Origin: an uncultured Spirochaetota bacterium
Lineage (GTDB): Bacteria; Spirochaetota; Brevinematia; Brevinematales; JAOACQ01
Assembly: GCA_963796325.1 (NCBI GenBank)
Contig: CAWCLF010000001.1
Location: forward strand, 1,461,800-1,525,799
Length of the DNA stretch: 64,000 nucleotides
Reading direction: 5' to 3'
Made by a program: the position numbers and the translations under genes. Positions 771-43,210 of this stretch are shown piece by piece. How positions within the stretch are numbered: the stretch's first letter is position 1; each line of letters opens with the position of its first letter. The notes beneath the pieces were generated by a model. It ran no database searches and had not been told where the DNA came from. It saw only the letters and a list, made by a program, of their open reading frames with translations.

Positions 771-772
771 AT

Positions 773-1741
773 TTAACCTACGCCAAGCCTATTCTTTATC
801 CGCTTTAAAAGCGGCTTCTTGATATATTTCTTGATGGCCCTTCTCGGAAGTATGCAGTCGACGGCGGCGGGAACAGTTTCGATCTCGACCGGCAGGTTGC
901 CGGACAATTCCCCGTCAAGCTGGGTATAAACATAACGGTTCGAAGATATCCTTACGCTTTTAGCCTGGTAAACTGCCGTCCTCTTCATGAAAACAGGGAA
1001 AAAGCTCAGGGCGTTGAAATGGAAAAAGGTGAATGCCACGCGGAAAATCAGTCCGAGCATAGCCAGGTAGCCGCTCTTTTTATAAATAAAAACATCCAAT
1101 AATCCGTCCACCGGGTTTGCGCGGGGGCTGATCGTAAAATAAACGCCGTAACGGCTCGTATTCGATACAAGAACAAAAGTTCCCTTTTCCCTGATCTTTT
1201 TATCGATTACTACCTCTAACGGGGGGTAGCTGTATTTCATAATAGCTTTCAGAGCTCCGAGAATGAAGACGATCTGGCCGAGCCTTTTTTTTAAACCCAG
1301 GCTCTGTATCTGCTTGATCATGTAAGCGTCGAAACCCGCTCCGCACATCAATAGAAAATACCTGCCGTTGCTCTTTGCGGCGTCAAGCTTCAGGCTCCTT
1401 CCCTTCCGGATCATTTTGCAGATTTTCCGCAGGCTTCGGGGAAAACCCATTTCTTTGGCGAAAACATTTCCGGTTCCCCAGGGGATGATCCCCATTTTCT
1501 TAGTTGATCCCATCATGCCGTTGAGGACTTCGTTGATCGTACCGTCGCCCCCGGCCCCGATGATGCAGTCATAATCGGACAGGCAGGCCTCTCTTGCGAT
1601 TTTTTCCGCATGACCCTGGTATCCCGTGAATACAACTGTGAGCTCAAGGTTGTGTTTTTCAAAATAACCGCGGATATAACCGATATGATTATTCTGCCTC
1701 CGGGATCCGGAAACGGGATTAACAATAAGAAGAAATTTCAT
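773..1741 (-). CDS. Diacylglycerol kinase family lipid kinase (YegS/BmrU-like)
   Basis: Motifs IVNPVSG, GAGGDGTINEV, IPWGTGNVFA, QLDGE. Confidence 0.9.
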   Translation of the reverse strand: MKFLLIVNPVSGSRRQNNHIGYIRGYFEKHNLELTVVFTGYQGHAEKIAREACLSDYDCIIGAGGDGTINEVLNGMMGSTKKMGIIPWGTGNVFAKEMGFPRSLRKICKMIRKGRSLKLDAAKSNGRYFLLMCGAGFDAYMIKQIQSLGLKKRLGQIVFILGALKAIMKYSYPPLEVVIDKKIREKGTFVLVSNTSRYGVYFTISPRANPVDGLLDVFIYKKSGYLAMLGLIFRVAFTFFHFNALSFFPVFMKRTAVYQAKSVRISSNRYVYTQLDGELSGNLPVEIETVPAAVDCILPRRAIKKYIKKPLLKRIKNRLGVG

Positions 1742-1759
1742 AAAATTCTCCGGAATATT

Positions 1760-3481
1760 TTATCTCAAAAAAGTAGTCACAGGCATGCCCTGTTTTCCAG
1801 CGACCAGGGGAAAATTCCCGCGTATAAGCCTGTATATAGTTATAAGCAGGCCTGTAGTCAAGGAATTATACAACAGCCTGTCGATTAACCTATACCCGGC
1901 CTTCTTCCTGATAAAAAGGCCGAGAAGGAATTTCAGCAGCGGGGGAAAATAGGTTTTTTTAAAATTAATATAAAAATGATAGCCGTCAGGATAATCGGAC
2001 CTGTATTTTTTTAAAAGAATTTTCAGCTTTACAAGGGGTTTATCCCCATCCTTTCCGTATATGATCTTCCGGCTGAGGTAAAGAAGCCTGAAGGTCCTGT
2101 AGTGAAATCTGTTATCATACGGCAGATCGAGCGCGGAATTTAACGCCCCCATCCGCTTAATCGATAAAAGGCCCCTCTTTCCCTTTTCTATGGATTTTTC
2201 CCAATTGCGGGTGAATGAGCGGTAGGCCAGAATTACGAGGTTTGTCAGGGTAACCTGGTCCCAGAGTATGTGAAGCAGGGGGGATATCCTGATCTTATTG
2301 AAATAATATTCTTTTTTTGCGAACTCCGGATCATAATACAGGTCTTTAACCGCTATATCTGAAAGGAGCAGGAATTCATAGAAATTGCCGAACGATCTTT
2401 TACCCTTTTCTCCGTTAAGGTATTCCTTAAAATATAGCTTTGCAGCTTCTTCGGACGAAAGCCCGTCACGGAATATTTTTATAGTTGCGAAAGTATTAAT
2501 TTCGTTCCAGATCGAACTCTTTTTCATGAAGGTAAAATTCCTGAAAGCCGACCATCCCCCGGTCTGGCACCATACATATATTCCCACGATATCATCCCTT
2601 TCTTTTAATTGTTCATGGAAAAGGGAATAATCTTCGCCCGTATAAGAGGGGAATTCGCCGAATCCTTCATATTCCCTGCGGGTCTGGAGTTCTATGATCT
2701 TTTTCTGACCATTGATAAAAAAAAACGGGTTCAGCTTTAAATGCCTGAAAAAATCAGCCGTCCCGTATTTCAGCGATAATATGAAAAATGGGCTGTCGAT
2801 AGCGGCTGTCAGCTTATCCAGCGTTTTTCCGTTCCACATGAGATCGCCGATCGGATATCCCCCGGTCGTCCAGGTGCGGAATATCATCAACTTTTTCCTG
2901 TTTTCAAAAACCGGCAAAAGACGCCTGATCAGCGAATTTGCGTATTCCGGGGATTTAACGGCGACTGAACTCTTGAAGTCTCCTTCGACATCCACACCGT
3001 CCGCTTCGCCGATCCTGAAGATCACACCCTCTATGCCGGGATATTCATCGAAGAGAAGCTCCAGATACGATGCAAGGATCCTCTTCAATCCTATTTTATT
3101 GATTTTCATATGATTCCTGATAAATTCGTTGTAAAACATTATATCTGTTGTGACGAAAACCTTGAGTCCCGATTTGACCGCTTCGCCGATCAGGATTTTG
3201 AATTCCTTCGAGTACTTTTTCAGCTTATCGCGGAGCAATTTTCCATAGAAGGGCCGGCTTACCATATGCGCCATGTCGTCAAGGGCTACCGCGTTGTATC
3301 CCATTGAAGATACTTTCCCGATATATTCCTTGAAAAGCACCCTTATGTTTTTATGGTTTTTTTTATCGAACCTTCCCTCTTTTTCAAGACGGTCGAAGGG
3401 TGTTTTAGACCAGTTTATGCTTTCCCTGGGATGCCTTGTAAAAAAGGGGCTTGAAGTGTCTATGATGAATAATTCCGGCAA
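1760..3481 (-). CDS. Hypothetical 573-aa protein, possible glycoside hydrolase-like TIM barrel
   Basis: Long ORF 18 bp upstream of the kinase on the same strand; segments GVIFRIGEADG, LIFRTW, SLKYG, IELQTRREYEG. Function is inference only. Confidence 0.6.
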   Translation of the reverse strand: MPELFIIDTSSPFFTRHPRESINWSKTPFDRLEKEGRFDKKNHKNIRVLFKEYIGKVSSMGYNAVALDDMAHMVSRPFYGKLLRDKLKKYSKEFKILIGEAVKSGLKVFVTTDIMFYNEFIRNHMKINKIGLKRILASYLELLFDEYPGIEGVIFRIGEADGVDVEGDFKSSVAVKSPEYANSLIRRLLPVFENRKKLMIFRTWTTGGYPIGDLMWNGKTLDKLTAAIDSPFFILSLKYGTADFFRHLKLNPFFFINGQKKIIELQTRREYEGFGEFPSYTGEDYSLFHEQLKERDDIVGIYVWCQTGGWSAFRNFTFMKKSSIWNEINTFATIKIFRDGLSSEEAAKLYFKEYLNGEKGKRSFGNFYEFLLLSDIAVKDLYYDPEFAKKEYYFNKIRISPLLHILWDQVTLTNLVILAYRSFTRNWEKSIEKGKRGLLSIKRMGALNSALDLPYDNRFHYRTFRLLYLSRKIIYGKDGDKPLVKLKILLKKYRSDYPDGYHFYINFKKTYFPPLLKFLLGLFIRKKAGYRLIDRLLYNSLTTGLLITIYRLIRGNFPLVAGKQGMPVTTFLR

Positions 3482-3604
3482 TTGAAATCCCCCTTTTGCA
3501 ATTTTCCCGCTTTTTATCCTACGGACTGTTTTTAAAAATTGCCATTTTTGCGGCGGAAAGGAAATTTAAAATAGTTTTACCTCAGTTTCGCCATACCGGG
3601 AACC

Positions 3605-4960
3605 TTATTTTGCGATGAAAATTCTCGCATCGTACGCGGGGATTATAAAAACAGTGCTTGTTATTTCTGATGTTGAGTCTATATAATAAGCGCCGAAAGT
3701 TGCCGTAATATTAGTTGGGTTATTATTCAGTATTACGGTTCCTTTTTGGAAGGCGCGGCCGAAAGTCTCCGGACCGAAAACATTGGACAGTAAGGAACCG
3801 CTCGCGCTTCCCATATCGGCGTTATATTCGTCGAACCACCAGAGCTGGCCATGAAGACAGTCCCCCCTGTCGAAACCGGAGTAGCCGCAATCCAAAAGCA
3901 TGGAAGTTACAAGGCCTACTCGCATCCTCCTGAGGTCGTCCGGCGTAAGGGCGGTTAAACTCTGCGCATTTGAAGCATCCCTGTTGTACCTGATGTCGGC
4001 GTTTATAAAATAATAGCGGGTTAAATTATTCGGATTGCAGGCAAAAGCCGTGGATTGATATCCATCCCATACGCCGTAACAGTATGACGGGTTGCTTCCG
4101 TTAAAGCCATACCACATACCGGCGCCGAATTCGTTGCCGAGAGCGTTTTCATTCATATTTCCATTCGCATTGGTGAAATATGGGCAGTCTGCCGGCCATG
4201 GCACTCCGCCGTTTCCGGTAAAAATATAACCGGGGCAATTTTCCCTCAGGATCTGTATAATATAATCCAAGCCCTGTATCCAGCAGACCTGGTCATTAAT
4301 ATCGTAGACACCGTCTTCATTGATATCGGCAGTCTGGGGATTATCAGCGGCAGCCCAGCTTGGAGCCCCCGCAGCGAAATTATCGAACATGACGCCATCG
4401 TAAAGGCCCGGCTTAAGGTAGTTATTTGTAAGATAATTAATTGCATACTTCGGCCAGGCATTATTATCCTTCCAGGGATTCATCATATAACCGCCCCATG
4501 GCATGACGATCAACTGCCCGCTTACCATTTTTATGAACCAGTTGTCAGGATTTGATGCCGGAGGCAAGCCCAGGCCAATGCCCTGAGTGAGGTCCGGGCT
4601 CTGCCCGAAGGGGATCCAGGCCAGTATCTTGATATTGGGGTTTACCGACCTGATTTTTGCCAGTGATATTCCGACATTATTAACGACATCGGGATCAATT
4701 ATAAGGACATTCCATTGGCCAAGCCTTTGTTCAAGCTGGCTGACATTATCCTCGGAAGTATAGCACTGGAAGTAATTTACCAGTTTGGGATATTGCCTTG
4801 TAACCGTGCCGGTGGGGGGAAGCATGGCTCCCAGGACTGAACCAGTGTAGCTGCTGCTGCCGGAAGAACCCGAACCCCGATTCATCGCTGCACAACCGCT
4901 CCAGTCGATAATGATCACGGCCAATATAATAAGCAGAGCAAATCCTGCAGTATTTTTCAT
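3605..4960 (-). CDS. Lipoprotein, putative glycoside hydrolase (GHL15-like)
   Basis: Lipobox WSGC and a Ser/Gly linker; DGVMFDN and GYSGFDRG...WWFDEY motifs resemble the putative glycoside hydrolase family. Confidence 0.6.
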   Translation of the reverse strand: MKNTAGFALLIILAVIIIDWSGCAAMNRGSGSSGSSSYTGSVLGAMLPPTGTVTRQYPKLVNYFQCYTSEDNVSQLEQRLGQWNVLIIDPDVVNNVGISLAKIRSVNPNIKILAWIPFGQSPDLTQGIGLGLPPASNPDNWFIKMVSGQLIVMPWGGYMMNPWKDNNAWPKYAINYLTNNYLKPGLYDGVMFDNFAAGAPSWAAADNPQTADINEDGVYDINDQVCWIQGLDYIIQILRENCPGYIFTGNGGVPWPADCPYFTNANGNMNENALGNEFGAGMWYGFNGSNPSYCYGVWDGYQSTAFACNPNNLTRYYFINADIRYNRDASNAQSLTALTPDDLRRMRVGLVTSMLLDCGYSGFDRGDCLHGQLWWFDEYNADMGSASGSLLSNVFGPETFGRAFQKGTVILNNNPTNITATFGAYYIDSTSEITSTVFIIPAYDARIFIAK

Positions 4961-27822: not shown

Positions 27823-29303
27823 TACTTAGTGTGTTTATGATCACGAGTAGCCTTAATATTGGTTTATTTGTTGTTTCAGGTTACGGAGATGTACAAAAGG
27901 CAACCAATAATGATGAATCATTAATCGACGCCGCTACAAATGGAGATGTATCTTTTATTAAAAATTATAAAGGGAATATTAATGAAACTAATGAGGATGG
28001 AATTACAGCTTTAATGGCTGCTGCTCTATATGGTAATGTGGATTCTGTTAATGCATTAATCAAAGCGAAGGCTGATATAAATGCCAAAGATAATAACGGC
28101 CGCACTGCCTTGATATACTCTTTCCGTAATGCTCATGCTCAGCAGCAATTAATAATAACTTCTAAAACCACCGGAAAATCGGAAACTATCGACATACCCA
28201 ACACTTTTAAATTAGAAGAAGTCAAAGCATTGATTTCCGCGAAAGCAGATGTAAATGCCAGGGACAATAACGGCTTGACGGCTTTGATTTATGCAGCATT
28301 AGCAGGCTATGCCGACATAGAAGCAGCCTTGATCGAAGCAAAAGCAAATGTAAATGTTATAGATGGATACAGTGAAACAGCTTTAATATACGCTTCGGAA
28401 TCCGGCTTTTTGGATTCGGTTAAAGTTTTAATTAAATCGAAGGCTAATATCAACACCTGGGATACTAACGGTCATACAGCTTTGATGGCCGCTGCCTATA
28501 AATGTCATTATGACGTTGTTGAAGAATTAATAGCGGCAAAAGCTGATGTCAATTTGACTGACAAATCCGGTAAAACGGCCATGATGCTTTCGATCATAGG
28601 CGGAGATGCGGACGGGAGTATTTTGAAATTATTGATTGGAGCAAAAGCCAAAGTTAATTCGAAAGATAATTTCGGTGAGACGGCTTTGACTTATGCCTCT
28701 GGTTCAGGTTATGTGGATTCGATAAATGCATTAATTGAAGCAAAAGCCGATGTCAACTCTAAGGATAATAACAGCTTTACAGCTTTAATGGCAGCTGCTA
28801 ACAAAAGTCAAACAAATGCCGTTGAAGCATTGATAGCGGCGAAAGCAGATCCTAATCTCACAGATAAAAACGGCAGAACAGTTTTAATGCTGGCAGTAAA
28901 TGGAAGTAATGCTACTGCTGATGTTTTTAAATTATTGATTGGAGCAAAAGCCGATGTCAATTTGACTGACAGGAATGGAATGTCGGCTTTAATGCGAGCG
29001 GTACAGATAGCAGGAAACGTGGATGCTGTCCAAATATTAATTGACGCAAAAGCCGATGTCAATGCAGTAAATAAAGACGGTTATAGGGTTTTAGTAATGG
29101 CAAAAGATCCTGCAATCATTGATGCATTAACAAAAGCTGGTGCTAAGTAGGGAAACGGTTTTTCTGACCAGAATTTGCCCCTTTTCAGGCCCAATGAACA
29201 TTCCAGGTTAGGATTTATTCAAAGGAGCGAAAAGCAGGGGGCCTATAGAAGGCAAAATTTCAGGGGTTGTGAATTAGTCTTTTTCAAAAGGGAGGTAGAT
29301 CAG

Positions 29304-30637: not shown

Positions 30638-31837
30638 ATGTATAAAAAATTTTTATTTTTAGCACCAATATTATTAGCAGGGGCGCTTGTATCCTGCGCT
30701 CTTATCGAGCCTCCTGATCTTGAAAACACAGTGGCTAGTTCATCGTCTTCTTCTTCTTCGCCTTCTGCATCTTCTTCGTCTTCTACGTCTTATAGCTTCA
30801 CAGTAATATATAACAGCGAAGGGGGATCTGCAGTAGGGTCACAAACCGTTAACTCCCCGAACACGACAGTTGGTACAGTTCCATTTACTACTTACACAGG
30901 CAAAACCTTTGGCGGTTGGTATACAGCCCCAAATGGAGGCGGATCAGAATTTACAGGCAGTACAACCGTCTCGGCAAATATCACGGTTTACGCTTTTTGG
31001 AATTCTCTGATACTTGTTCCCGCCGGTACATTTCAGTATGACGGCAATTCAGGCGACACGTGTACTGTGCCGGCCTTGCATATGAGCGAATATGACATCA
31101 CCGGGTCTGAATTTAGCGCGGTTACTGGGCTTCCGGATCCAAGTTATTTTTCAGGAGTTGCCACTCACCCAGTTGAACAAGTTACCTGGTACGATGCTCT
31201 TGTATTCTGCAACGATCTGAGTATCAAAGAAGGCCTGACTCCGGTATATACCATCAGCGGCAATACTTCTCCTTCCGCTTGGGGAACAATACCGACGTCA
31301 GAAAGTGCAACATGGGATGCGGTCACAGCAAACTGGTCAGCCAGCGGTTACCGCCTGCCCACGGAAATGGAATATATGTGGGTGGCTATGGGCGACACCA
31401 GCGACGCCCGGAGCGGTGATATCGCCTTGGGTACCAACACAGGCGGCTACACTAAGGGATACGCGGGCAGTACGGAAGCAGGAGGCGCACAGGTCAATAT
31501 TGGGAATTATGCCTGGTACTCAGTCAACGATGGCACTACTACTAAGGCGGTAGGGACAAAGCTCCCCAACGAGCTGGGTTTGTATGATATAAGCGGAAAC
31601 GTGTGGCAATGGATATGGGATGCCTGGGATAGTTCTACTGGTTATAACAACGGCGTCGGAGGCCCTGTTACTGACCCAACTTATAATGGTCAGGCCTGGG
31701 CTTCGGGCTTTGGCCGCGTCATTCGCGGCGGCAGTTGGCATGATGGTGCGTCTTACATCACGGTTGCCTTTCGCAACGGCGGCGTCGGCCCGTATTCCAC
31801 TTTCTACCATGTCGGCTTCCGGGTTGTTCGCCCCTGA
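30638..31837 (+). CDS. Lipoprotein with Ser linker, InlB B-repeat and FGE-sulfatase/CLec domain (candidate DGR target)
   Basis: Lipobox LVSC; repeat TVIYNSEGG...FGGWY...ITVYAFW; RLPTEMEY, PNELGLYDISGNVWQW, RVIRGGSW...VGFRVVRP. Confidence 0.88.
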   Translation: MYKKFLFLAPILLAGALVSCALIEPPDLENTVASSSSSSSSPSASSSSSTSYSFTVIYNSEGGSAVGSQTVNSPNTTVGTVPFTTYTGKTFGGWYTAPNGGGSEFTGSTTVSANITVYAFWNSLILVPAGTFQYDGNSGDTCTVPALHMSEYDITGSEFSAVTGLPDPSYFSGVATHPVEQVTWYDALVFCNDLSIKEGLTPVYTISGNTSPSAWGTIPTSESATWDAVTANWSASGYRLPTEMEYMWVAMGDTSDARSGDIALGTNTGGYTKGYAGSTEAGGAQVNIGNYAWYSVNDGTTTKAVGTKLPNELGLYDISGNVWQWIWDAWDSSTGYNNGVGGPVTDPTYNGQAWASGFGRVIRGGSWHDGASYITVAFRNGGVGPYSTFYHVGFRVVRP

Positions 31838-32005
31838 GCCTCTGGCTCAGGGTAAATCCTGAGTTCTGCAGAATGCACCTGAGCTTCTGCAGAACCAACC
31901 GTCTTCCGGCTGCACTTTAGAGCCGCGAAATGAGAGTTGCACCTTCCTACTGGTACCTGTCCCGTAGGGGCCAAACGGTAAAGCCGGAAGGTGTATTTTT
32001 ATACC
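31838..32005 (+). repeat. Structured 3' element shared with the second CLec gene (copy 1)
   Basis: Hairpin CTCAGG-GTAAAT-CCTGAG (31846-31863); 11-bp stem 31863-31895; long-range stem TGCACCTTCC/GGAAGGTGTA (31938-31995) followed by a T-tract. Confidence 0.75.
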
Positions 32006-32183
32006 TTTTTGGAATTCATAAATTTGTGAAATTTTGTAATTTTAGAAATGTGCGTGGTTTAGCCGTACAATATTCTCCGATTTGTAAGTTGCCCTTATAA
32101 GGAAAGCTTAACAGGCAAATTTTGGGAACATTTTATTTGCCCCTGGTGACACGAATGCTCCCATAGGGCCATGAAGGAGTTTT

Positions 32184-32867
32184 ATGGGTATAATATCTCG
32201 GATCAATATCAGAAATGAATTGACAGGTGATCGGTCTAGAATAAGCGTATATACCAGCGGTTATCTGGAGAATGACACGATTATTGGGATCGCGGAAACA
32301 GTTCTTACTGAGCAGATATCCGGAAAGGAATTTCCCCAGCGCTACCTTTTTACAAAAGACGATGAAGACTATAAGGGCTTTAATATCGATTTTATGATAA
32401 TAGTCAGAAAATCAATCTCGGAATTGAGAGAGGAATTGATCGGGGAAAATATTCGGGATGTTCTTTCAAATATTTCAGATGCATTATTTGAATCTACCAT
32501 AGCAACCATTGACATTCATGATCAGGCTTACAATGACCTGAACAAAAATATTGTTGAATATTCAAGTGATGAATTATGGGTGGCATACGCCAAAACTAGG
32601 TTGAAATTCGGCAATGTCGAATTGGCCCGGTTATTAAATCACCAGGAAAAGCCTGAGTTTATCCAGTGGAAAAAGGAGTTTAACAAAACCATTGATACCA
32701 TTGATGCTCCGGGAATCCCGCATTTAATATTTAAAGCGAACGATATAAATTTTATCACATTACCCGAGGATCCTCGCCAGCGCCATGATCAGGAGATCTC
32801 CCGGTCAGCTCCATGGCCAGCTCTGGAGATTGACAGGCCAGGACCCGGACAAGGGTCAAAAAAATAG
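32184..32867 (+). CDS. Hypothetical protein (227 aa)
   Basis: RBS AAGGAG; clean ORF, no motif recognised. Confidence 0.65.
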   Translation: MGIISRINIRNELTGDRSRISVYTSGYLENDTIIGIAETVLTEQISGKEFPQRYLFTKDDEDYKGFNIDFMIIVRKSISELREELIGENIRDVLSNISDALFESTIATIDIHDQAYNDLNKNIVEYSSDELWVAYAKTRLKFGNVELARLLNHQEKPEFIQWKKEFNKTIDTIDAPGIPHLIFKANDINFITLPEDPRQRHDQEISRSAPWPALEIDRPGPGQGSKK

Positions 32868-33039
32868 ACCTGCCCCATAAAAACGGGCAATATAGAACCT
32901 TAATACAAGGCGGGTTTAGGAATTATATGAATGACACATTGAGGAAGGCCTCACGTTGACCAGGGCGAGACATTTTTTTAATAAAAACACTTGATTGGGG
33001 CTGGACACAGCAGATTTAACATTTAAAAGGGGTATCATT

Positions 33040-33231
33040 ATGCCGATCAACCTTCCGGATTACGCCGACAGCGGCGATGAAAGAAAACTGGAAGCGGATT
33101 ACAAAGCTTTACGTAAAACAGTTCTCAAGGACATCGACCCGGCGGCCCTTGACAAGCTGCTTATGAAGAAAATAATCCCCGCCCTCAGGGACGCCCTGGA
33201 GAAAAGAAGATCTGAATTAAATCTGTCCTGA
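33040..33231 (+). CDS. Small hypothetical protein (63 aa)
   Basis: RBS AAAGGGG before ATG 33040. Confidence 0.5.
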   Translation: MPINLPDYADSGDERKLEADYKALRKTVLKDIDPAALDKLLMKKIIPALRDALEKRRSELNLS

Positions 33232-33413
33232 TACCCGGAAAAACCGCCGTTTTAGCCCACTACAGACCGGGAAATATGTTGGTGTGATATAAAATAGTTA
33301 TGAAATGGGAAAATATGGGGTTTATAGAGGGCAAAATAAAGGGCAGTAACATTATTTTTATTGACTATTTTTCTGATATTATTAGTATGAATAATATTGG
33401 AGGTTTTATATAA

Positions 33414-34190
33414 ATGAAAAGATTATTAATCTTTATTATTCTCTCAATTTATGCCTGCACCATTCTCAATTCGTGTTCATCATATTCAGATTCACGGAAA
33501 AAGTTACTAAAAGCTTCGATAAACGGTGATATTTCATTCATCAAAAGTTACAAAGGGGATTTGAATCAGCCTTTGGATAAGGAAGGTCATACAGCTTTAA
33601 TGCAGGCAATTCAATTCGGACAATTTTCAGTAATCGACGCTTTGTTAGAAGCTAAGGCTGATGTTAATTTGGTAACTAAAAAAGGCTCTACGGCTTTGAT
33701 TCTGGCTTCACTAAGAATTGATGAATCCAATGTAGTTAAAGAATTGATAGATGCGGGGGCTAATGTCAAAGCGCATAATCAAAGCGGCTTGACGGCTTTG
33801 ATGAATGTGGCATATGGCGGTGATACAAATATTGCCAAAGAATTGATAATGTCGGGGGCTGATGTCAACGCTGTGGATCAAGGGGGTTACACACCTTTAA
33901 TTTATTCATCTCGCAATGGGAAAACCGATATGATGAATGAGTTAATCATGGCAAAAGCTGATGTAAATGCTCAAGATGAAGACGGCTGGACAGCTCTAAT
34001 GTGGATTGTACATTGCTCAACAAATAGCCCAAAATTCAAATTGGAGCTGTTATCTGCGGTTAAAACATTAATTAAAGCGAAAGCGGATGTCAATTTAGCC
34101 GGGAAAAAGGGTGAAACGGCTTTATCGTTAGCTGTTAAAGCCGGAAATACGGATGTTGTCAATCTATTGAAAAAAAATGGCGCAAAATAG
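33414..34190 (+). CDS. Ankyrin-repeat lipoprotein
   Basis: Lipobox LNSC; about 6 ANK repeats (GxTALM...ADVN). Confidence 0.88.
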   Translation: MKRLLIFIILSIYACTILNSCSSYSDSRKKLLKASINGDISFIKSYKGDLNQPLDKEGHTALMQAIQFGQFSVIDALLEAKADVNLVTKKGSTALILASLRIDESNVVKELIDAGANVKAHNQSGLTALMNVAYGGDTNIAKELIMSGADVNAVDQGGYTPLIYSSRNGKTDMMNELIMAKADVNAQDEDGWTALMWIVHCSTNSPKFKLELLSAVKTLIKAKADVNLAGKKGETALSLAVKAGNTDVVNLLKKNGAK

Positions 34191-34232
34191 ATATTTACTA
34201 GACTAGTAATATCTCAACTAATTACCACATTT

Positions 34233-36468
34233 CTATGGTGTTACAAAGATTGAGAATGCCCATCCGTTTAATGTCAATTTTGTTTCATTAGTCCCTGCCC
34301 AGTAGCATGCATTCCCGTAGTTATCATATCCGGCAGTAAATACTGTGTTATTATTTACAGAGATTGAATTTGCGATTTCCCCTGTTGTCAATTTTGTTTC
34401 ATTGGTCCCTGTCCAATAGCAAGCATTTGTGCCAGTGTCTAGTCCGGCCGTATAGATTGTGTCATTTGTCACAAAAATTGAGTATGCCACGCCATTTGAG
34501 GTCAATTTTGTTTCATTGGTCCCTGCCCAGTAACATGCGTTTGTATTGGCGTCTTGTCCGGCGGTATAAACTTTCCCATTATACACATAGATTGCGGTTG
34601 CCCCTCCACCTTTGTTTCCTGACAACGCTGTCTCGTTAGTCCCTGTCCAGTAACAAGGAATATGACCATTATCATACCCAGAAGAGTAGATTATATTGTT
34701 TAGAGAAAGTGATGAAGAACTAGATGAAGATGATGGCTTAGATGAAGATGATGACGAACTAGTGCTAGATGGAGGGGATGAATTCGAACCTGGTGAAGAG
34801 GAACAAGCCCCGTGTGTTAGGATAGTTGTCGCCTAAAATATTAGGAGACAAAAAATGAAAAGTCAATTTCATTCAGAAGAATTCAGGAGAACTATCGTTC
34901 AAAAGATGTGTATTCCCGGCGGGAAAACAGTAACAGAATTAAGTCAGGAAATAGGAGTGAGTGATCAGACCCTTTACAATTGGAGGAAAATGATCCAGAA
35001 TAATGTATCCAGAGGATACCAGGAGAGAAGTCCGAGAGGTTGGAAACTATCTGAAAAGTATCAGGCGGTGATAGATTCAGCCAATCAATCGGGAGAAGAG
35101 TTGGGACAGTGGCTAAGGAAAAACGGACTTCAGACAACGCATATCGAGCTCTGGAAACAGGAGTGTAAATCAGTGTTATCTAATAATGAAGCCAGGGATG
35201 AAATCAAGCAATTGAAAATAAAAATAGCCGAGTTAGAAAAGGAAATTAATCGTAAGGATAAAACTATAGCCGAGGTTACTTCTCTGCTGGTGCTTAAAAA
35301 AAAACTGAACAAGCTATTCGGCAAAGAGGAAGATTAACTCCCATGGATATAAGGATAAATATCTGTGATTTGATAAATGAGGCAGTTATGACAGGGGCAA
35401 GCAGGGATAAGGCTTGTGAAGAATCAGGTTATGACATCAGGACCATTCAGCGCTGGGATAAAAATCTTGAAGGAGATAGGAGAAAAATACGGGAATATAA
35501 ACCCAGGAATGCCCTGTCAGCAGAAGAAAGAGAGGAAATCATCTCCTGTTGCTGCTCTGAGAGGTTCATAGATATGACCCCGAATGAAATAGTACCATTA
35601 CTGGCCGAGGAAGGGGTCTATAAAGGATCAGAATCGACTTTTTATCGTGTCTTGAAGGAAAAAAATATGCTTCACCATAGATATGAAACGAAGCCGAAAA
35701 CGGCGAGAAAAACCCCAAGAGAGTTGGAAGCGACAGGGCCCAACCAGGTATGGAGCTGGGATATTACCTATATATCCAGTCATATCAAGGGTAAGTACTT
35801 CTATCTCTATCTGTTTGAGGATGTCTGGAGCCGTAAGATAGTCGGCTGGAAAATGCACGAGGAGGAAAGCTCCGATCATGCCGCCAGGATTATGGCCGAG
35901 ATCGGAGAAACAATTGATTTAAAGGGCTTGTATCTACATTCAGATAACGGTTCTCCTATGAAAGGAGCAACGATGTTATCGACCTTGCAGAGGCTACAGG
36001 TTATGCCATCGTTTTCAAGGCCGAGCGTAAGTAACGATAACCCTTACTCAGAATCATTGTTTAAGACTTTAAAGTATAATGTAAAATACCCTGGCCGTTT
36101 CGAGACAATAGAAGCGGCGGAAATATGGATGCAGAATTTCGTAGACTGGTATAACAATAAGCATCTTCATTCAGGGATTGGATATGTGACCCCTGCACAG
36201 AGACATGACGGTAAAGATAAGGCAATACTCCTGATGAGAGCGAAAACTTATGATGCGGCAAAAAGCAGGCATCCTGAAAGATGGTCAGGAGAATCTAAAA
36301 AATGGGAAAGGATAGAATCGGTATTTTTAAACCCGAGTAAGACTAACAAGGAATCGTTGATTGCGGCGTAAAATAAAAGCGACAACTCCCTTGACAAAAA
36401 CCGCAAGCTGATATAAAATAAATGCTCAAAATAACAAACATGATTAAAATAATAAAATTCTTTTTCAT
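34233..36468 (-). pseudogene. Ser-linker lipoprotein with 38-aa beta-propeller-like repeats, split at the lipobox by IS3 copy 3
   Basis: ATG 36468 gives MKKNFIILIMFVILSIYFISA-C; the IS sits inside the Cys codon. The frame continues SSSPGS...; repeats recur with a 114-nt period (34273, 34387, 34501). Confidence 0.85.
34808..36403 (+). mobile_element. IS3-family element C, copy 3 (1596 bp)
   Basis: TSD CAAG (34804-34807, 36404-36407); ORFs 34855-35337 and 35343-36371 are identical in translation to copy 1. Confidence 0.95.
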
Positions 36469-36500
36469 AATCCCTTCTTAATTTATATAATCAAATGTTT

Positions 36501-36780
36501 TTATTTATGTATTATATTCAATGCGGGTGTCTCCTCTTCCATACCATTAAATGTAAATACTTGACTTTTTGTACCATTGCTATTGTCTGTAACATACCAG
36601 AAATACGTACCAGTTTCTTCGGCATCAAATCTATAACTATAACTGGTGCTTGAACAATTAAAAGATTGTGTGCTTTGATCAGGTAAGATTAAGTTAAAAG
36701 TATAGCTTGTTGATCCAGTCGTCGTCGTCCAAGTAAATATTTGCGTGCCAGGGGCATAAGCGAATCCCGCACCTATCTTG
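36501..36780 (-). pseudogene. 3' fragment of a secreted protein gene truncated at the attC-like element
   Basis: VYTKIGAGFAY...GTYFWYVTD... looks like a real beta-rich C-terminus; the upstream part of the listed ORF runs through the GC-rich hairpin. Confidence 0.45.
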
Positions 36781-36970
36781 GTATAAACGGTTTCGTGGCG
36801 GTATGACGAACGGGTTTGGTGCGCCAGGGACATTTGCCGCCCCGCCAGGGGTTGGCGCGACTTTTGCATCCCGCAACAAAGTCGTGACAAAGGCAATGTC
36901 CCGTCAGGGCGCACCCGAGGAGCGCAGCCGCAGTCAGTGCGAGCACCGCAGCGTATAGCCGTTGTTAAAC
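36781..36970 (+). repeat. Long attC-like site 1
   Basis: Nested stems GGTGCGCC/GGCGCACC (36818/36908), GGGACATT/AATGTCCC, CGACTTT/AAAGTCG; ends in the GTTRRRY core GTTAAAC (36964-36970). Confidence 0.65.
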
Positions 36971-37054
36971 GCTGGCCCAGTCGAACATCGGCACAAAAAG
37001 TAAAGCCACGGATGGCGATGGAATACTCAAAAGTTTTTATTTAATTTCTAAATT

Positions 37055-37789
37055 TCAAACTTTTGCAAAGAAGTCAGAACCTATTTTCCCATCCGAATAA
37101 TTATAGACCAAATGAGGTCTACGATGTTTGTCAATGCAATTACCAATGTCTGAAACATTTTTATGATTGTTCTTTGTTTCAAATAGATTTTTCTTGGCCT
37201 CATCTGAAAGAAGTACAACATTTTTATTGCCAAAATCAGCAATTCTACAGACTTTGATAACTTCACTTCCAAAGATATCCTTGGAAGCCCCCAAACCCCA
37301 ATACGAAAAAAACGTGCCGAATGAAATCCCTATTCTATACTGCATGTAGTCAAGATGCGAAAGATAATTAATAACTAGTCTGGTGCAGAAGTCTATTGCA
37401 ACATCAACGTTATTAGATTTAAAAGCAGCTATAAAACCATCACCGGTTCCTTTAAACAATATTTCATATTTAACTTTTTTTATTATTTCTTTACAAGCCA
37501 CATCTAACATAGATTGAATATTAAATTGAACAGCATCTTCATTTTCAGAGAAATCTTTACAATCAAAACATAAAATACTTGAGTTTGTATATTTTTCGGG
37601 CTTTTCTAATAGATAAATAATGTTGTTTTTCTCAATACTTCTTGAATGGCCGTGCGGACACATACTTATGTTATTTGCCAAATATGATGTTAAATAGGCA
37701 GTTAAGTTATCAAAAACTATGCAGTTTTCAGGGAAAAAGTCATTACAGTCAGAGCAGTAAAAATATTGTGATATATGAAGTTCTCTCAT
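37055..37789 (-). CDS. Class III nucleotide cyclase-like protein with N-terminal Cys/His cluster
   Basis: LCFDCKDFS, KGTGDGF, RIGISFG, DIFGSEVIKVCRI; N-terminal CSDC...CPHGH. Confidence 0.7.
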   Translation of the reverse strand: MRELHISQYFYCSDCNDFFPENCIVFDNLTAYLTSYLANNISMCPHGHSRSIEKNNIIYLLEKPEKYTNSSILCFDCKDFSENEDAVQFNIQSMLDVACKEIIKKVKYEILFKGTGDGFIAAFKSNNVDVAIDFCTRLVINYLSHLDYMQYRIGISFGTFFSYWGLGASKDIFGSEVIKVCRIADFGNKNVVLLSDEAKKNLFETKNNHKNVSDIGNCIDKHRRPHLVYNYSDGKIGSDFFAKV

Positions 37790-37988
37790 AATTATCTCCC
37801 TTTCAAGTTAAATTCCGGCACGAATGCCGGAAATATTCTTATACATAAGGCTTCGACCCGGGGCTTGCGTTTAACTATATATATGCGAACTGGTTCGTGA
37901 AATCATCCAATTATGGCATGATATACGAACTATTTTCTCAATTTCCCAATATAACATTCCAATACTATTTTAAACCATACCAGTGGTT

Positions 37989-38100
37989 TCATCCAGGATT
38001 CTTAGATAATATTTTCCTCATCGAATCCACTACCTTCAAATCTATGCTGTTTGCACTATGAACTATCCGGTCACATATTGACCCGCCCCCCAAAATTTGG
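37989..38100 (-). pseudogene. IstB-like (IS21 helper) C-terminal fragment
   Basis: DRIVHSANSIDLK..DSMRK resembles the IstB C-terminus DRLVHNAHRIELKGESMRK. Confidence 0.5.
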
Positions 38101-38439
38101 TCCAACTTATATGTTAGTATATAATTGGCAATTTCTCGGATACCGGTCAAAGCTTCAGCTAAAACGAGAACACCCAAAGCACTTAAGAGAGCTCCTATTA
38201 AGGGGGAATTGTCCAATTAAATCCACTGAATACGGATATGTTTAAGAACAATTGGGCAAAACCGGAGTCAGTTAACAAAACAGGAGAATAAAATGAAAGA
38301 AGATAAATTTCTTGATTTTGGGGTTCCCACAGAATTCGGGAAATTTAGCACGTTAAGGTAAGGTTTATCCAGGACCTTCAGATTCCTCACAAAAGCAAAA
38401 TAAATATATTTAAATGCGATTTGCCGAGCTTTTTGTACC

Positions 38440-39882
38440 GCTCCTCCGGCCTATGCTTCACAAGGCGAGTGCCGAGGAACGGATAACGTATAATATTTTT
38501 CGCACATTTGAAAAATGTATAAAAAAAAGTCCTCAATCTGACGATATTTGGATCGACCAAAACCACAAATATCGGGGAAGGAGGACTTAGTCAATGACCG
38601 GTAATATTATCGAAATCAATGAGGAAAAAGTCAAAGATCATTTAGGAAAATTTGTCAGGGAAACAGTTAAAGAAACATTGAATGCGATGCTAGATTCCGA
38701 AGCGGATCAGCTTTGCCGGGCTCAAAAGTATGAGCGTACAGCGCAGAGAATGGACAAAAGAGCCAGGTATTACGAAAGAAAGCTGGATACAAAGGCCGGC
38801 AGGGTCAATTTAAGAGTTCCTAAACTGAGGAAATTACCTTTTGAAACTGCGATCATCGAAAGGAATAAAAGGCGGGAAAGTTCGGTTGAAGAAGCTCTGG
38901 TTGAAATGTATATAGCAGGTGTTTCTGTGAGACGGGTTGAAGACATTACAGAAGTATTATGGGGAACGAGGGTATCTCCCGGAACTATCAGCAATCTAAA
39001 CCAGAAGATATTCGAGAGTATTAAAAAATGGCGGAATGAATTCCTCAAGGAACATTATTCTTATGTATATATGGATGGGATCTGGCTTAAACGCAGTTGG
39101 GGCGGAGAGGTTAAAAACGTATCGGTTTTGGTTGCTATAGCGGTCAATGAAGAAGGGTTCAGGGAAATAATAGGGGTTGCCGAAGGAGCGAAAGAAGATA
39201 AAAACAGCTGGAGAAACTTCCTGAAATACCTGAAAGAACTAGGTTTAAATAAGATCGATTTAATCGTTTCGGATAAGTCGTTAGGCCTAGTTGAAACCAT
39301 CCCGGATTTTTACCCGGATGCTAAATGGCAGCGTTGTGTAGTACATTTTTATCGTAATGTTTTCAGCCTTGTTCCAAACGGTAAGGTTAAAGAAGTTGCA
39401 ACGATGCTGAAAGCTATCCATGCCCAGGAAGATATTGAGGAAGCCCGGAGAAAGAAAAGTATGGTTGTTTCAAAGCTGAAAGAAATGAAATTATCGAAAG
39501 CATCTGAGCTTGTTGATTCGGGAACCGATGAAACCTTATCTAATTATTACTTTCCTGTCGAACACTGGAAAAGGATCAGGACCAATAATGGGCTTGAAAG
39601 AATAATGAAGGAGATCAGGAGAAGGACCAGGGTAGTCGGCGCTTTCCCGGATGGGGAATCGGCCCTGATGTTGGTAGCGGCCAGGCTCCGTCATATCGCC
39701 GGGTCAGTCTAGAGTGAGAAAAAATATTTGAACATGGATTTACTTAATGGTATTGATATGATTGATTTGGTGTCATGATCCAGGGTCAGATTGAGGAATG
39801 TGCGAAAGATTCTTGACACTACCGAGGAACGCAGGCGTAGCAAAGCGTTGCCGCGTACCGCAGCGCATGTACGCTGTTAGCG
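38440..39882 (+). repeat. attC-like site 2, interrupted by IS256
   Basis: The rebuilt empty site CCGAGGAACGCAGGCGTAG...TACCGCAGCGCATGTACGCTGTTAGCG aligns with CCGAGGAGCGCAGCCGCAG...CACCGCAGCGTATAGCCGTTGTTA of site 1; core GTTAGCG at 39876. Confidence 0.6.
38482..39823 (+). mobile_element. IS256-family element (1342 bp), transposase with premature stop
   Basis: 8-bp TSD GAGGAACG (38474-38481, 39824-39831); IRs share TTTCGCACA. ORF 38594-39712 (YMDGIW, WQRCVVHF, RTNNGLER) ends in TAG where Trp is expected. Confidence 0.9.
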
Positions 39883-40027
39883 GAAGTCGCCCCAAAAATA
39901 TTAATATTTTAAAATATGCCTATAAAGATTACTCCGCAATATTAGAACAAGTTAAATATACATCGCTAAGTCCCCTGGGCCGACATCAGGAAAAGGCCCA
40001 ACGAATTTCCACATGTTTATAAGAAGG

Positions 40028-40167
40028 ACATAAAAATACACCTTCCGGTATTTCCGGTTGCCCGCTATGGGGACTGGTACCAACAGGAAGGTGCAACTCA
40101 TTATTCGCGACATTCTGCCGCTAGAAGCCGGCTGGTTCTGCAGTTGCTCAGGTGCAATCTACAGGGC
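40028..40167 (-). repeat. Structured 3' element shared with the first CLec gene (copy 2, lacks the stop-proximal hairpin)
   Basis: Reverse complement TGCACCTGAGCAACTGCAGAACC...GAGTTGCACCTTCC...CCGGAAGGTGTATTTTTAT matches 31874-32002. Confidence 0.75.
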
Positions 40168-41148
40168 TCAGGGGCGCACAACCCGGAAACCGACGTCGCT
40201 GTACCCGTCGTACGGGATGTCGTAATCGCGATAGGCAACCGTCGCGCAGGACTGATCGTAGCCCCAACTGCCGCCGCGCACGACGCGGCCCGCGCCCGAA
40301 GCCGCTCCGTTATAGGTCGGATCAGTCAGCGCTCCTCCGGGATAAGACCCATACCAGTCCCAGCACCACTGCCAGACATTCCCGCTCATGTCGCACAGGC
40401 CCAGCTCGTTGGGAAGTAATAAGCCTACAGCTTCGGTTGAACTTGGTGTTGGGGTGCTATTACCGGTATAGGCATAACTGTTAATATTAAATTGAGCTCC
40501 TCCCGCTTCCGTACTGCCCGCGTAGCCCTTTGTGTAGCCGCCAGTATTGACACCACTAACAATATCGCCGCTCAGGACGTCGCTTGTCGCCCCCATAGCC
40601 GCCCACATATATTCCATCTCCGTAGGCAGGCGGTATCCGGAAGCTGAAAAATTGCATACTACCGTATCCCATGTCGTGTTATCTGACGTAGGTATCGCGC
40701 CCCAGGCGGATGGAGAAGTACTGCCGCTGATAGTGTACACCGGAGTCAGCCCTTCCTTGATGCTCAGATCGTTGCAGAATACTATCGCAGCATACCAGCT
40801 TACTGTTTCAACCGGGTGATTGGCCTCTGAAGAAGTACTCGGGTCAGTAATCCCGGTTACATTCTGAAATTCTGTGCCGGTGATGTCGTATTTGCTCATA
40901 TGAAAGGCTGAAGATATAGTACAAACATTGACTGAACCGGATTCATACTGAAAGGAACCCGCGGGAACAAGTATCATTGCGGATACGTAATCCGGTGAAG
41001 AAGAACTGGAACTGGAGCTTGAACTGGAGCTTGAACTGGAGCTTGAGCCGCCTCCGCCGCCACCCGACGATCCAGGTGAATTGGAACAAGCCGCGATCAC
41101 AAAAGCAAAAGTGATAAAGATACCGTAAAAACAAATGTTTCTTTTCAT
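40168..41148 (-). CDS. Lipoprotein with Gly/Ser linker and FGE-sulfatase/CLec domain (candidate DGR target)
   Basis: Lipobox IAAC; paralog of 30638-31837 without the B-repeat; RVVRGGSW...VGFRVVRP. Confidence 0.88.
   Translation of the reverse strand: MKRNICFYGIFITFAFVIAACSNSPGSSGGGGGGSSSSSSSSSSSSSSSSSPDYVSAMILVPAGSFQYESGSVNVCTISSAFHMSKYDITGTEFQNVTGITDPSTSSEANHPVETVSWYAAIVFCNDLSIKEGLTPVYTISGSTSPSAWGAIPTSDNTTWDTVVCNFSASGYRLPTEMEYMWAAMGATSDVLSGDIVSGVNTGGYTKGYAGSTEAGGAQFNINSYAYTGNSTPTPSSTEAVGLLLPNELGLCDMSGNVWQWCWDWYGSYPGGALTDPTYNGAASGAGRVVRGGSWGYDQSCATVAYRDYDIPYDGYSDVGFRVVRP
41009..41044. repeat. 12-bp tandem repeat x3 encoding the poly-Ser linker
   Basis: GAACTGGAGCTT at 41009, 41021, 41033. 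Confidence 0.9.
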
Positions 41149-41253
41149 ATTTATCCCCCATTATGTTTTTATAATCATTATTAACTGACTTTCACCGCCG
41201 GAAACATTTTATTGAGTTTGATAATAATATACATATAAATTGTTTTAAACATC

Positions 41254-41880
41254 TTATCCAACCAGATCTTTATATGTTATAGAATTAGAATTTAAGCAAG
41301 CTGTCACAAGCCTGTTAAAAAGCTGGCCTTCCCAAAATCTCCTGTTATAACGGTAGCAAAATTCATCGAGATATTTCTGCAAATGTTCGTTGCAAGCCCC
41401 GTGATATGTGCCTTTTATAAATGTCTTTGCATTAGAAATAACTATGTGAACCCATTTCATGGTATAATCGACCGTTGTATGATTATACCGATTGGCTGAA
41501 AGGCCGTTATAAGCCCTGAATCCGTCTGTTTTAATTATCGATTCTCCTTTAATATTATTTCTGATCTCATGCAGGATAGTATTTTCTTTCATGTTGTCTA
41601 CTATAGTCATTTTAGCAAATTCGGGTTTTCCTTCATCCGATGTGGATAATTGGACAAGAACTTTAGCTTTTCTTGTACCTCTGCCCCTTTTATTATCCTC
41701 ATCCTTACCACCGAAGAAAGCATCGTCAATCTCGATAATATTTCCAAGCTGGTATTGATCGTCTCTGTTTTTCATGGCTTCCCTGATCTTGTGAAGCATT
41801 AACCAAGCTGTTGGATATGAAACTTTAATATGCTTCTGTAATCTCAAAGCTGATACTCCGCCTTTATCCGCCGAGCAAAC
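41254..41880 (-). pseudogene. IS1595-family transposase, N-terminally truncated
   Basis: TAWLMLHKIR, IEIDDAFFGG, IKTDG, KGTYHG, YLDEFCYRYNRR. Confidence 0.85.
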
Positions 41881-42545
41881 ACTGCTTCTAAAGACAAATC
41901 CCGAAACTGGTCTATCCTTTCGAGTATTGCTTCAAACAGTTCCTTCGGAACAGTAACTTCAGCCATCTGAAAAACCATATAACACGCATGGCTTATTACC
42001 TTCGCCCCGATCTTGACAAGCTTATCACGGAGCGTTTTCAATGACAAATAGAACGAGGCAGAGCAACTTGCCGAAGGAAGTTCCCCAGATTATAGGAAAG
42101 AGCAAACAGCTGAAGCCTTACCTGATTGTCCACGAAATCATGACAGGACAGTCTTGTCCATTTGATCGCGTATTTTCCTTCCTTGATCCACTGCTCCGCT
42201 GTACCCCTCAAGTTGTAGAACCTAACGACCTTTTTCGGCAGCCATCGTAGGTTAGTTATGATGAATCCGACTCGAGGGAATAGCTCACCGCGATGCCACT
42301 CAACCTTCGCTATTACATGACGTCCCCGATCCCAACTTACAGCTTTGTAGAAAAAATCATGGTATAGGACAACGGGGGCAAAGGACGGTCATCCGACCGG
42401 GCGTTTCAGGAGATGTGCGATATTATTTTGAAGAATATCGTTGGCAGGAAGGCGAATGGCATAAAGGAAATCTTCCGATTCAAGGTATTCATAAATATCC
42501 GGATTCACGAAAGCGGCGTCGCCTCGGAAGAAGCGATCCAGATCC
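41880..42545 (-). pseudogene. IS1380-family transposase remnant (frameshifted fragments)
   Basis: FRGDAAF...[25 protein letters not shown] (42270-42305 reverse), TLRDKLVKIGAKV. Confidence 0.8.
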
Positions 42546-42940: not shown

Positions 42941-43210
42941 ATGGAAATTTCATTCAGTTCTTCTTTTAAAAGAGCATTTGAAAAACAAATATCTGGAAGA
43001 AAGCAAATTGAAAAAGAGTTTTGGGATACATTAGAAATTTTCATACAAAATCCTTTCGATCACCGATTAAAAACTCATAAACTTCAAGGGAAACTGAAAG
43101 AACTTTGGAGTTTTTCCGTTGAATATGACTTAAGAATTGTCTTTTATTTTTCTGAAGATGATAAAAAAGCCATATTCGTTGATATCGGGAAACATGACGA
43201 AGTTTATTGA
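42941..43210 (+). CDS. RelE/YafQ-superfamily mRNA interferase toxin
   Basis: FSSSFKRAF...LKTHKLQGKLKELWSFSVEYDLRIVF...DIGKHDEVY. Confidence 0.88.
   Translation: MEISFSSSFKRAFEKQISGRKQIEKEFWDTLEIFIQNPFDHRLKTHKLQGKLKELWSFSVEYDLRIVFYFSEDDKKAIFVDIGKHDEVY

Follow-up and report, generated by a model that had tools for sequence, protein, structure and literature searches.

The window analysed here is a stretch of 64,000 nucleotides (nt) from an uncultured Spirochaetota bacterium (GenBank assembly GCA_963796325.1, contig CAWCLF010000001.1, positions 1,461,800 to 1,525,799). It contains two lipoprotein genes, here called gene A and gene B, with 3′ ends of the kind made by diversity-generating retroelements (DGRs). 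As the preliminary description of the window had stated, neither a reverse transcriptase (RT) of such an element nor a template repeat (TR) lies near them, and this proved true of the window and of the entire assembly. Both genes are probably collapsed DGR cassettes, in which the variable repeat (VR) of the target gene became joined to the tail of the lost TR, the accessory HRDC gene and the RT gene are gone and the variants are frozen. This reading is carried by adenine-specific mismatches between both VRs and the TRs of related elements, by the TR-type sequence that follows both genes, and by intact cassettes in related Brevinematales, one of which is colinear with gene B and its surroundings.

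Genes A and B and their variable ends

Gene A (30638..31837, plus strand) was recognised from its open reading frame (ORF) and from Pfam matches as the gene of a 399-aa lipoprotein with lipobox LVSC, a poly-Ser linker, a Flg_new repeat (PF09479, 1.4e-10) and a formylglycine-generating enzyme (FGE)-sulfatase/C-type-lectin domain (PF03781, 1e-26). It has no close homologue, the closest non-self match in the protein database reaching 51% over the full length. Gene B (40168..41148, minus strand), identified in the same way, encodes a lipoprotein of 326 aa with lipobox IAAC, a poly-Gly/Ser linker and an FGE-sulfatase/C-type-lectin domain (PF03781, 1.3e-35); in both proteins Pfam places the end of this domain at the final residue. 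The two genes are paralogues with about 76% nt identity across the lectin domain and belong to a family that numbers 6 copies here and as many as 8 in genus relatives; the scaffolds are clean in some members and visibly decayed in others.

The scaffold shared by the final 40-41 codons of both genes reads GRV.RGGSW-x7-TVA-x-R-x4/5-P-x6-VGFRVVRP. The VR was placed at 31700..31837 (plus strand) in gene A by homology to related DGR TRs, than which it is one codon longer, and at 40168..40308 (minus strand) in gene B by alignment to the TRs of loci L131 and L136, described below, to which it is equal in length. The near-invariance of the scaffold reported earlier was confirmed: the window has exactly two occurrences of each of its blocks CGCGGCGGCAGTTGG and TTCCGGGTTGTNCGCCCCTGAGCC, where 0.05 and 0.00 would be expected, and genome-wide these blocks are found at genes A and B alone, while a genome-wide scaffold search with up to 3 mismatches gave no third copy. 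The earlier counts of variable codons ending in C or T (18/19 in gene A and 15/18 in gene B) were also reproduced, the codons departing from NNY being GCG in gene A and CAG, GCG and GGG in gene B. Because the bodies of both genes already consist of 59-60% NNY codons, the NNY bias alone is weak evidence. The preliminary description had regarded a similar bias in the rest of the genes as a sign against a DGR; that objection weakens the argument from codon endings (over the whole VR, 37 of 42 codons are NNY in gene A and 31 of 41 in gene B), and it is the comparison with TRs that decides. Since the two VRs differ in length by one codon and also at several third positions, they were not copied from one current template. 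Synonymous differences in the cleanest pairs are lower in scaffold codons (0.13-0.29) than in the rest of the gene (0.39-0.60); the corresponding test gave p values of 0.003-0.03 for the best pairs and was not significant for many others, and this modest effect is not relied on.

Searches with the gene B protein led to clusters of homologues, some of them named by NCBI as proteins of Brevinematales metagenome-assembled genomes (MAGs). The proteins of one 90% cluster show no differences over about 220 aa and hypervariability in the final 42 aa, and a second cluster is alike. Loci L131, L132 and L133, which stem from ENA and JGI samples and are identical outside the VR save for one base, have the order Tn3-family transposase, tyrosine recombinase, MNT/HepT toxin-antitoxin pair, target, HRDC, RT and TR, with 145-4720 as the coordinates noted for this association in L131. 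Locus L136 has the order IS1595 transposase, target, HRDC, RT and TR, and the same core of target, HRDC, RT and TR was found at L134 and L135. In the L131-type cassettes the RT gene is overlapped by the HRDC gene and has the TR at its 3′ end; the cassette RT contains the motifs IGNLTSQ and YMDD, which mark DGR RTs. When compared with their own TRs, the VRs of the intact cassettes differ at 23/38, 22/38 and 16/38 adenines and at 0/100 other bases. A comparison of L131 with L133, recovered from separate samples, shows 22 differences over 5042 nt, of which 21 fall in the VR. Because the mismatches between VR and TR are restricted to adenines and the differences between L131 and L133 are concentrated in the VR, the cassettes of these relatives are active DGRs. 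At L134 (10813-10933) the 3′ end of the VR is frameshifted in 2 population variants of the cluster-5 target (P0021 and P0144), whose protein ends in ...YRVPGCSPLSSA in place of ...GFRVVRP; owing to the frameshift, their mismatches to the TR at the VR 3′ end are non-adenine.

The TRs with which genes A and B were compared all come from such related elements and none from this genome. The gene B VR, equal in length to the L131 TR, differs from it at 23 of 38 adenines and at 6 of 100 other bases (p=3.5e-11). All 14 gene B codons aligned to AAY codons are rewritten, all are NNY and all have the third base of the TR, including three AAT codons. After removal of one GGC codon, the gene A VR differs from the L131 TR at 27/38 adenines and 17/100 other bases (p=3.6e-9). 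Non-adenine mismatches to the known TRs number 6-8 in gene B and 16-18 in gene A, compared with 0-2 in active VR/TR pairs, and the signature of gene A appears to be older than that of gene B or to derive from a more distant template. These comparisons support the view that the C-termini of both proteins are genuine DGR-made VRs in C-type-lectin/FGE lipoproteins of the TvpA kind, and in this respect the preliminary description was right. The gene B protein shares 79% aa identity with the target of the L136 cassette (P0001), the gene 80% nt identity with L136 1309-2285, and gene B is the orthologue of that target. A pre-DGR ancestral state of gene B was considered and rejected, as it would need 14 AAY codons to arise while the third bases of gene B stayed.

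The 3′ flanks and a proposed deletion between repeats

VR and TR are followed by different sequences in all intact cassettes. The VR is followed by CGCCCC-TGAGTTCTGCAGATGCTCGAT..., leading into the HRDC gene, and the TR by CGCCCC-(C/T)(G/T)AGCCC(T/C)GCGG(A/C)ATGCACCT(G/A)AGC.TCTGCAGAACCAGCC... and then by about 150 nt of conserved structure. Both gene A and gene B have the TR-type GCC right past the stop codon. In the first 45 nt past CGCCCC, gene B agrees with the TR flank at 39-40 positions, compared with 14 for the VR flank. The blastn homology to TR flanks extends past the stop for 211 nt in gene B (39957..40167, minus strand) and for 286 nt in gene A (31838..32123, plus strand). For gene B, L131 7459-7808 aligns with window positions 40308-39957 at 79% and L136 3842-4119 with 40308-40032 at 84%; for gene A, L131 7464-7865 aligns with 31699-32123 (C1:1493498-1493922 in genome coordinates) at 68.6% and L136 3847-4143 with 31699-32022 at 69%. 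The gene B flank would be the TR 3′ flank of its lost cassette, and the gene A flank likewise corresponds to the putative 3′ domain of the DGR RNA. The consensus fold of the flanks contains a long stem with a U-run besides two hairpins, and 5 of 37 predicted pairs show compensatory changes. Hairpin P1 is predicted at 31863-31895 behind gene A and at 40135-40166 behind gene B, and the long stem with the U-run at 31934-32002 (terminator-like) and 40030-40099, respectively. No Rfam family matches the element; the predicted fold fits the 3′ domain and terminator of a DGR RNA.

The surroundings of gene B are colinear with the intact L136 cassette: L136 544-1173, 1309-2285 and 3842-4119 correspond to window positions 41874-41243, 41169-40157 and 40308-40032. 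The first of these segments is a 5′-truncated IS1595-family transposase upstream of gene B (41243..41874, minus strand; fragment 41254-41847, DDE_Tnp_IS1595 2e-26), which has 86.6% nt identity to its L136 counterpart. The part of L136 that holds the HRDC and RT genes (2286-3841) has no counterpart in the window.

Based on these observations, genes A and B would once have been core targets in HRDC-type cassettes consisting of target (VR), HRDC, RT, TR, and a structured 3′ RNA domain with terminator. As long as the cassettes were intact, the AAY codons for the binding face of the C-type lectin would have been rewritten by adenine-mutagenic retrohoming. About 1.6 kb with HRDC and RT would then have been lost by deletion between the direct repeats VR and TR, with the crossover in the identical 3′ block GGTTTCCGGGTTGTGCGCCCC or just beyond it. 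The product would be a hybrid repeat in which the VR-type diversified codons and the stop are followed by the 3′ flank of the TR, and the outcome an ordinary lipoprotein gene in which one variant of the binding site is fixed and which probably ends at the former terminator of the DGR RNA. The simplest reading is that the deletion took place by homologous recombination or slippage between VR and TR. The collapse of gene A would be earlier, or from a more distant cassette, and that of gene B more recent. Since a TR-type flank follows each gene, both are best seen as cassettes that lost their own RT and not as remote recipients, and because the genome has no other TR, RT or accessory gene, they presumably can no longer be diversified and change by ordinary mutation only. 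Patches of cDNA were rejected as the origin of the TR-type flanks, given that the homology extends through the terminator and farther, over 200 nt past the TR, that neither HRDC nor RT is present and that adenines are not singled out in the differences from known TR flanks.

The same join was observed elsewhere. At L044 the VR is followed by 170 nt that match the TR flank of the intact L134 cassette at every position, the proteins of L044 and L134 belong to the same 90% cluster and the L044 genome lacks the RT. Moreover, the metagenome contigs L119, L123 and L125 have the same VR-to-TR-flank join. Since the nearest relatives are intact in each case (L136 for gene B, L134/L135 for L044), the join arose at least twice independently in this gene family. 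The transcripts of genes A and B, with a VR and a complete DGR-RNA 3′ domain, may resemble template RNA, and there is a slim chance that they could act as alternative templates, or that the genes could be re-diversified in trans, if a mobile HRDC-RT cassette like the Tn3-borne ones of relatives re-enters the cell. If true, hypermutation at chromosomal lectin genes would be locked reversibly, by collapse between VR and TR, and unlocked again by re-entry of a transposon.

Search for a DGR and competing explanations

The genome that contains the window comprises 3.58 Mb in 4 contigs. All four contigs start in rRNA operons, C1 and C2 in 16S rDNA and C3 and C4 in 23S rDNA with 1340 identical nt; the assembly breaks only at rDNA repeats and is nearly complete. 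Judging from its contiguity and from MFD-type relatives, it is probably a long-read assembly. Reads of the source sample come from a single run and were used as short-read contigs of about 3-4x depth.

The preliminary description had proposed that a DGR at another site of the genome diversifies genes A and B in trans and had suggested a search for a template matching the scaffold with an adjacent RT. This search was run and neither was found: the 3.58-Mb genome yielded no TR (fuzzy pattern, blastn and genome searches), no DGR RT (Pfam RVT_1 and tblastn with the RT of Bordetella phage BPP-1 and the L131 RT) and no HRDC or Avd gene (tblastn with the L131 HRDC and the BPP-1 Avd). Given these results and the TR-type flanks, the proposal of a resident DGR acting in trans is not supported. 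A search for the Avd family PF05635 returned 16-bit noise only, located in 23S rDNA (C3 and C4 1061-1153). The sole RT gene of the genome (C1:613765-614832), which is also the single match of the RT searches, is group-II-intron-like, with GGNLSPLLAN, YADD and a maturase-type C-terminal region, and has one in-frame TAG. The RT probe is sensitive, because in a positive control the BPP-1 RT picked up TR-adjacent DGR RTs at 5 other spirochaete loci with E values of 1e-35 to 1e-50.

Among relatives, the 11 family members examined likewise lack the RT, and in genus relatives, which have similar VR-like genes, no DGR RT was found. A TR-like pattern was absent from 42 genomes of the same class, and a scan of 401 Spirochaetota genomes found real TRs in 18, all outside the class of the window; none of these TRs has the scaffold of genes A and B, although the TR of genome G054 shares its CCCCTGAGCCCTG end. 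An exact scaffold scan of public collections gave VR-like ends in genomes (14 stretches) and in metagenome contigs (12) and no TR, and the same scan of viral contigs gave zero matches and thus no evidence of a phage-borne template for this scaffold. The preliminary description had named a lack of TR and RT in this genome and its relatives as an argument against DGR involvement; the lack is real for the genome, and the RT is absent from the 11 family relatives, but intact cassettes are present in uncultured Brevinematales. What is found in genes A and B, namely an adenine-specific VR signature relative to the TR of a relative combined with a genome free of RT and TR, is the pattern of orphaned targets.

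In a distant spirochaete with a 2.76-Mb single contig (G057), 9 VR-like copies occur, and at C1:1703224-1703693 of that genome (L065) a clear AAC-rich TR lies 170 nt downstream of a target gene. No RT was found in that genome by Pfam RVT_1 search or with the BPP-1 RT probe; a genus relative of it (G286, locus L071) has an RT directly beside the same TR. A TR kept after the loss of the RT represents another decay state.

In the genome of the window, a decayed copy of a Tn3-DGR element is located at C1:2076849-2080190. What is left comprises genes for a truncated Tn3 transposase (392-aa ORF) and for a recombinase sharing 86% identity with the L131 one, and a target paralogue with a degenerate VR, the VR-type flank of which stops a few codons into HRDC. 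HRDC, RT and TR were lost by a different, non-repeat deletion. Additionally, identical copies of a recombinase with 86% identity to that of L131 are located at C1:827048-830730 and C1:1154279-1157961 beside a more distant Tn3-family transposase (27% identity), and these probably represent a related transposon without a DGR.

Several points weigh against a collapse of cassettes at genes A and B. Searches turned up no intact cassette with the extra codon that characterises gene A. The gene A flank is a mosaic of TGAGCC, a palindromic insertion of 19-25 nt, the VR-like TGAGTTCTGCAGA and TR-type sequence, and because of this mosaic one clean crossover cannot explain it. The insertion, which neither gene B nor the TR flanks have, holds a perfect 9-bp inverted repeat with a 3-nt loop, read from the sequence as the 21-nt palindrome CCCTGAGCC-TCT-GGCTCAGGG that spans the gene A stop (31832..31852, plus strand). 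In gene B a VR-type T in the TGA stop is directly followed by the TR-type GCC, with about 2 nt of identity there. The TRs of L134 and L135 carry TGA, and the gene B junction would be easy only if its own TR had TGA as well or if the stop was restored by a later C-to-T change; the exact junction appears unplaceable by sequence. Furthermore, the genome is a MAG, so that an unbinned plasmid or transposon with a DGR may exist, and the public short-read contigs (about 3-4x) from the source sample span neither junction.

Instead of being relics, genes A and B might be live remote targets that are diversified in trans by an unbinned mobile DGR on a Tn3-family transposon or plasmid. Cassettes that are intact, active and apparently mobile, with closely matching TRs, do exist in related populations, HRDC-type DGRs of Treponema are known to have remote targets (PMC5758913), the completeness of the MAG is estimated at 94%, and the decayed copy at C1:2076849-2080190 implies that such elements visited the lineage. 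Nevertheless, RT, TR and HRDC are all absent from an assembly that is broken only at rRNA operons, and just past the stop, where the VR and TR of intact cassettes consistently differ, genes A and B are of the TR type and not of the VR type (like the initiation of mutagenic homing site, IMH) that marks a homing-competent recipient site. According to work cited in PMC4891356, BPP-1 homing is blocked where the 3′ end is of the TR type (IMH*), and by analogy the flanks of genes A and B would block homing into them. Moreover, one TR cannot serve two VRs of unequal length, the non-adenine mismatches given above exceed those of active pairs, and the RT is missing from all 11 family representatives examined and from the L044 genome. 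Diversification in trans is thus rated as unlikely.

An error of assembly, in which the VR and TR (140-nt repeats, about 80% identical) were collapsed by the assembler and 1.6 kb were dropped, so that the organism would still have intact cassettes at one or both loci, is very unlikely. Hypervariability of the VR from cell to cell complicates assembly graphs, and the public short-read contigs indeed break at both VR ends (31808/31855 and 40166-40174); however, the same join was found at two loci here and also at L041, L044, L119, L123 and L125, whose assemblies are independent and come from other projects and technologies, the dropped 1.6 kb would probably persist as a contig although the bin contains no fragment of RT or HRDC, a 140-nt repeat is far below the read length of the presumed long-read data, and the gene B flank is 16-21% diverged from known TR flanks, as expected of an old fixed join. 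Least probable, and in effect refuted by the comparison with TRs, is that no DGR was ever involved and that diversifying selection acted on the binding loops of paralogous lectins whose scaffold was kept by structure and codon bias. The large paralogous family, of 6 members in this genome and as many as 8 in relatives, the long identical nt stretches that also occur elsewhere in the genes, and the roughly 60% NNY content of the gene bodies are in line with such a history, yet it is at odds with adenine-specific mismatches to a real TR (p of about 1e-9 to 1e-11) with the third base kept in 14/14 codons, with the lower synonymous differences in scaffold codons of the cleanest pairs, and with more than 200 nt of non-coding TR-flank homology. 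The collapse of former core cassettes is preferred over these alternatives.

Known systems and genomic surroundings

The TvpA DGR of Treponema denticola was reportedly described by Le Coq and Ghosh in 2011. Genes A and B and the related cassettes share with TvpA and with 'architecture C' DGRs the FGE-type C-type-lectin fold, the C-terminal VR, lipoprotein targets, an HRDC gene overlapping the RT gene, and AAY-rich TRs. Unlike these systems, the window has target genes only, and the relatives are ordered target, HRDC, RT and TR within a Tn3-family transposon or behind IS1595; in the T. denticola cassette HRDC is located between TR and RT, whereas in the Brevinematales cassettes the TR is at the 3′ end of the RT gene. 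HRDC-containing 'architecture C' DGRs and their remote targets have been described by Wu et al. 2018 (PMC5758913).

Leftover targets in DGR-less T. denticola strains have been read as remnants of lost core cassettes (2016, PMC4891356). Like these, genes A and B encode spirochaete FGE/C-type-lectin lipoproteins, their VRs differ from the TRs of relatives mostly at adenines, and RT and TR are lacking. In contrast to the T. denticola leftovers, the apparent route of loss is legible in genes A and B, where the VR is joined to the TR 3′ flank and HRDC and RT are excised, and the host belongs to environmental Brevinematales instead of oral Treponema. Degenerate DGR loci of Thiohalocapsa PB-PSB1, whose decay Dore et al. 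2024 (PMC10907252) ascribed to transposons and MITE-like arrays, are similar in that RT or TR is missing or degraded, the surroundings are transposon-rich and structural variants with and without RT occur in natural populations. They differ in that at least 1 complete locus per class is left there, while here no complete locus remains and a repeat-to-repeat deletion is proposed. By analogy, the identical 3′ block of VR and TR followed by a short, consistently differing stretch may correspond to IMH and IMH* of BPP-1, and the conserved structured RNA after the TR, by its position, to the BPP-1 spacer region (PMC3240598). Unlike in BPP-1, the accessory gene is HRDC and not Avd, and the TR stands after the RT and not before it.

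Orphaned DGR targets are hence a known kind, and in limited literature searches no description was found of a VR-to-TR-flank fusion as the scar, footprint or route of DGR loss, or of its recurrence. Equally limited searches found no paper pairing 'Brevinematales' and 'diversity-generating', and with the cassettes presented here active HRDC-type DGRs, tied to a Tn3-family transposon and an IS1595 element, are documented in this order. DGRs are patchily distributed, and VR-like gene ends without a retroelement are frequent in genomes. The present case would provide a one-step route of loss, in which a VR/TR direct-repeat deletion drops the RT and the accessory gene, leaves the target intact and fixes one variant. 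The join of a VR to a TR flank would be a recognisable footprint, by which former core targets could be separated from true remote targets and the frequency with which hypermutation is switched off could be gauged.

The mobile-island setting suggested in the preliminary description was borne out, as the window from 29 to 43 kb is rich in insertion sequences (IS) throughout, with IS3, IS256 and fragments of IS1595 and DDE_Tnp_1_4 around both genes. As context, Pfam matches between genes A and B identify an IS3-family element with a HTH_Tnp_1 ORF and a rve integrase ORF (34855..36371, plus strand) and an IS256 (Mutator-family) transposase (38594..39712, plus strand; PF00872, 2.1e-104), the latter about 250 nt from where the TR-type flank of gene B ends. 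The DDE_Tnp_1_4 fragment, also assigned by Pfam, is located at 41844-42047. Genes for two ankyrin-repeat proteins (27831-29150 and 33414-34190) flank the neighbourhood of gene A, and a YafQ/ParE-type toxin gene is located beyond gene B at 42941-43210.

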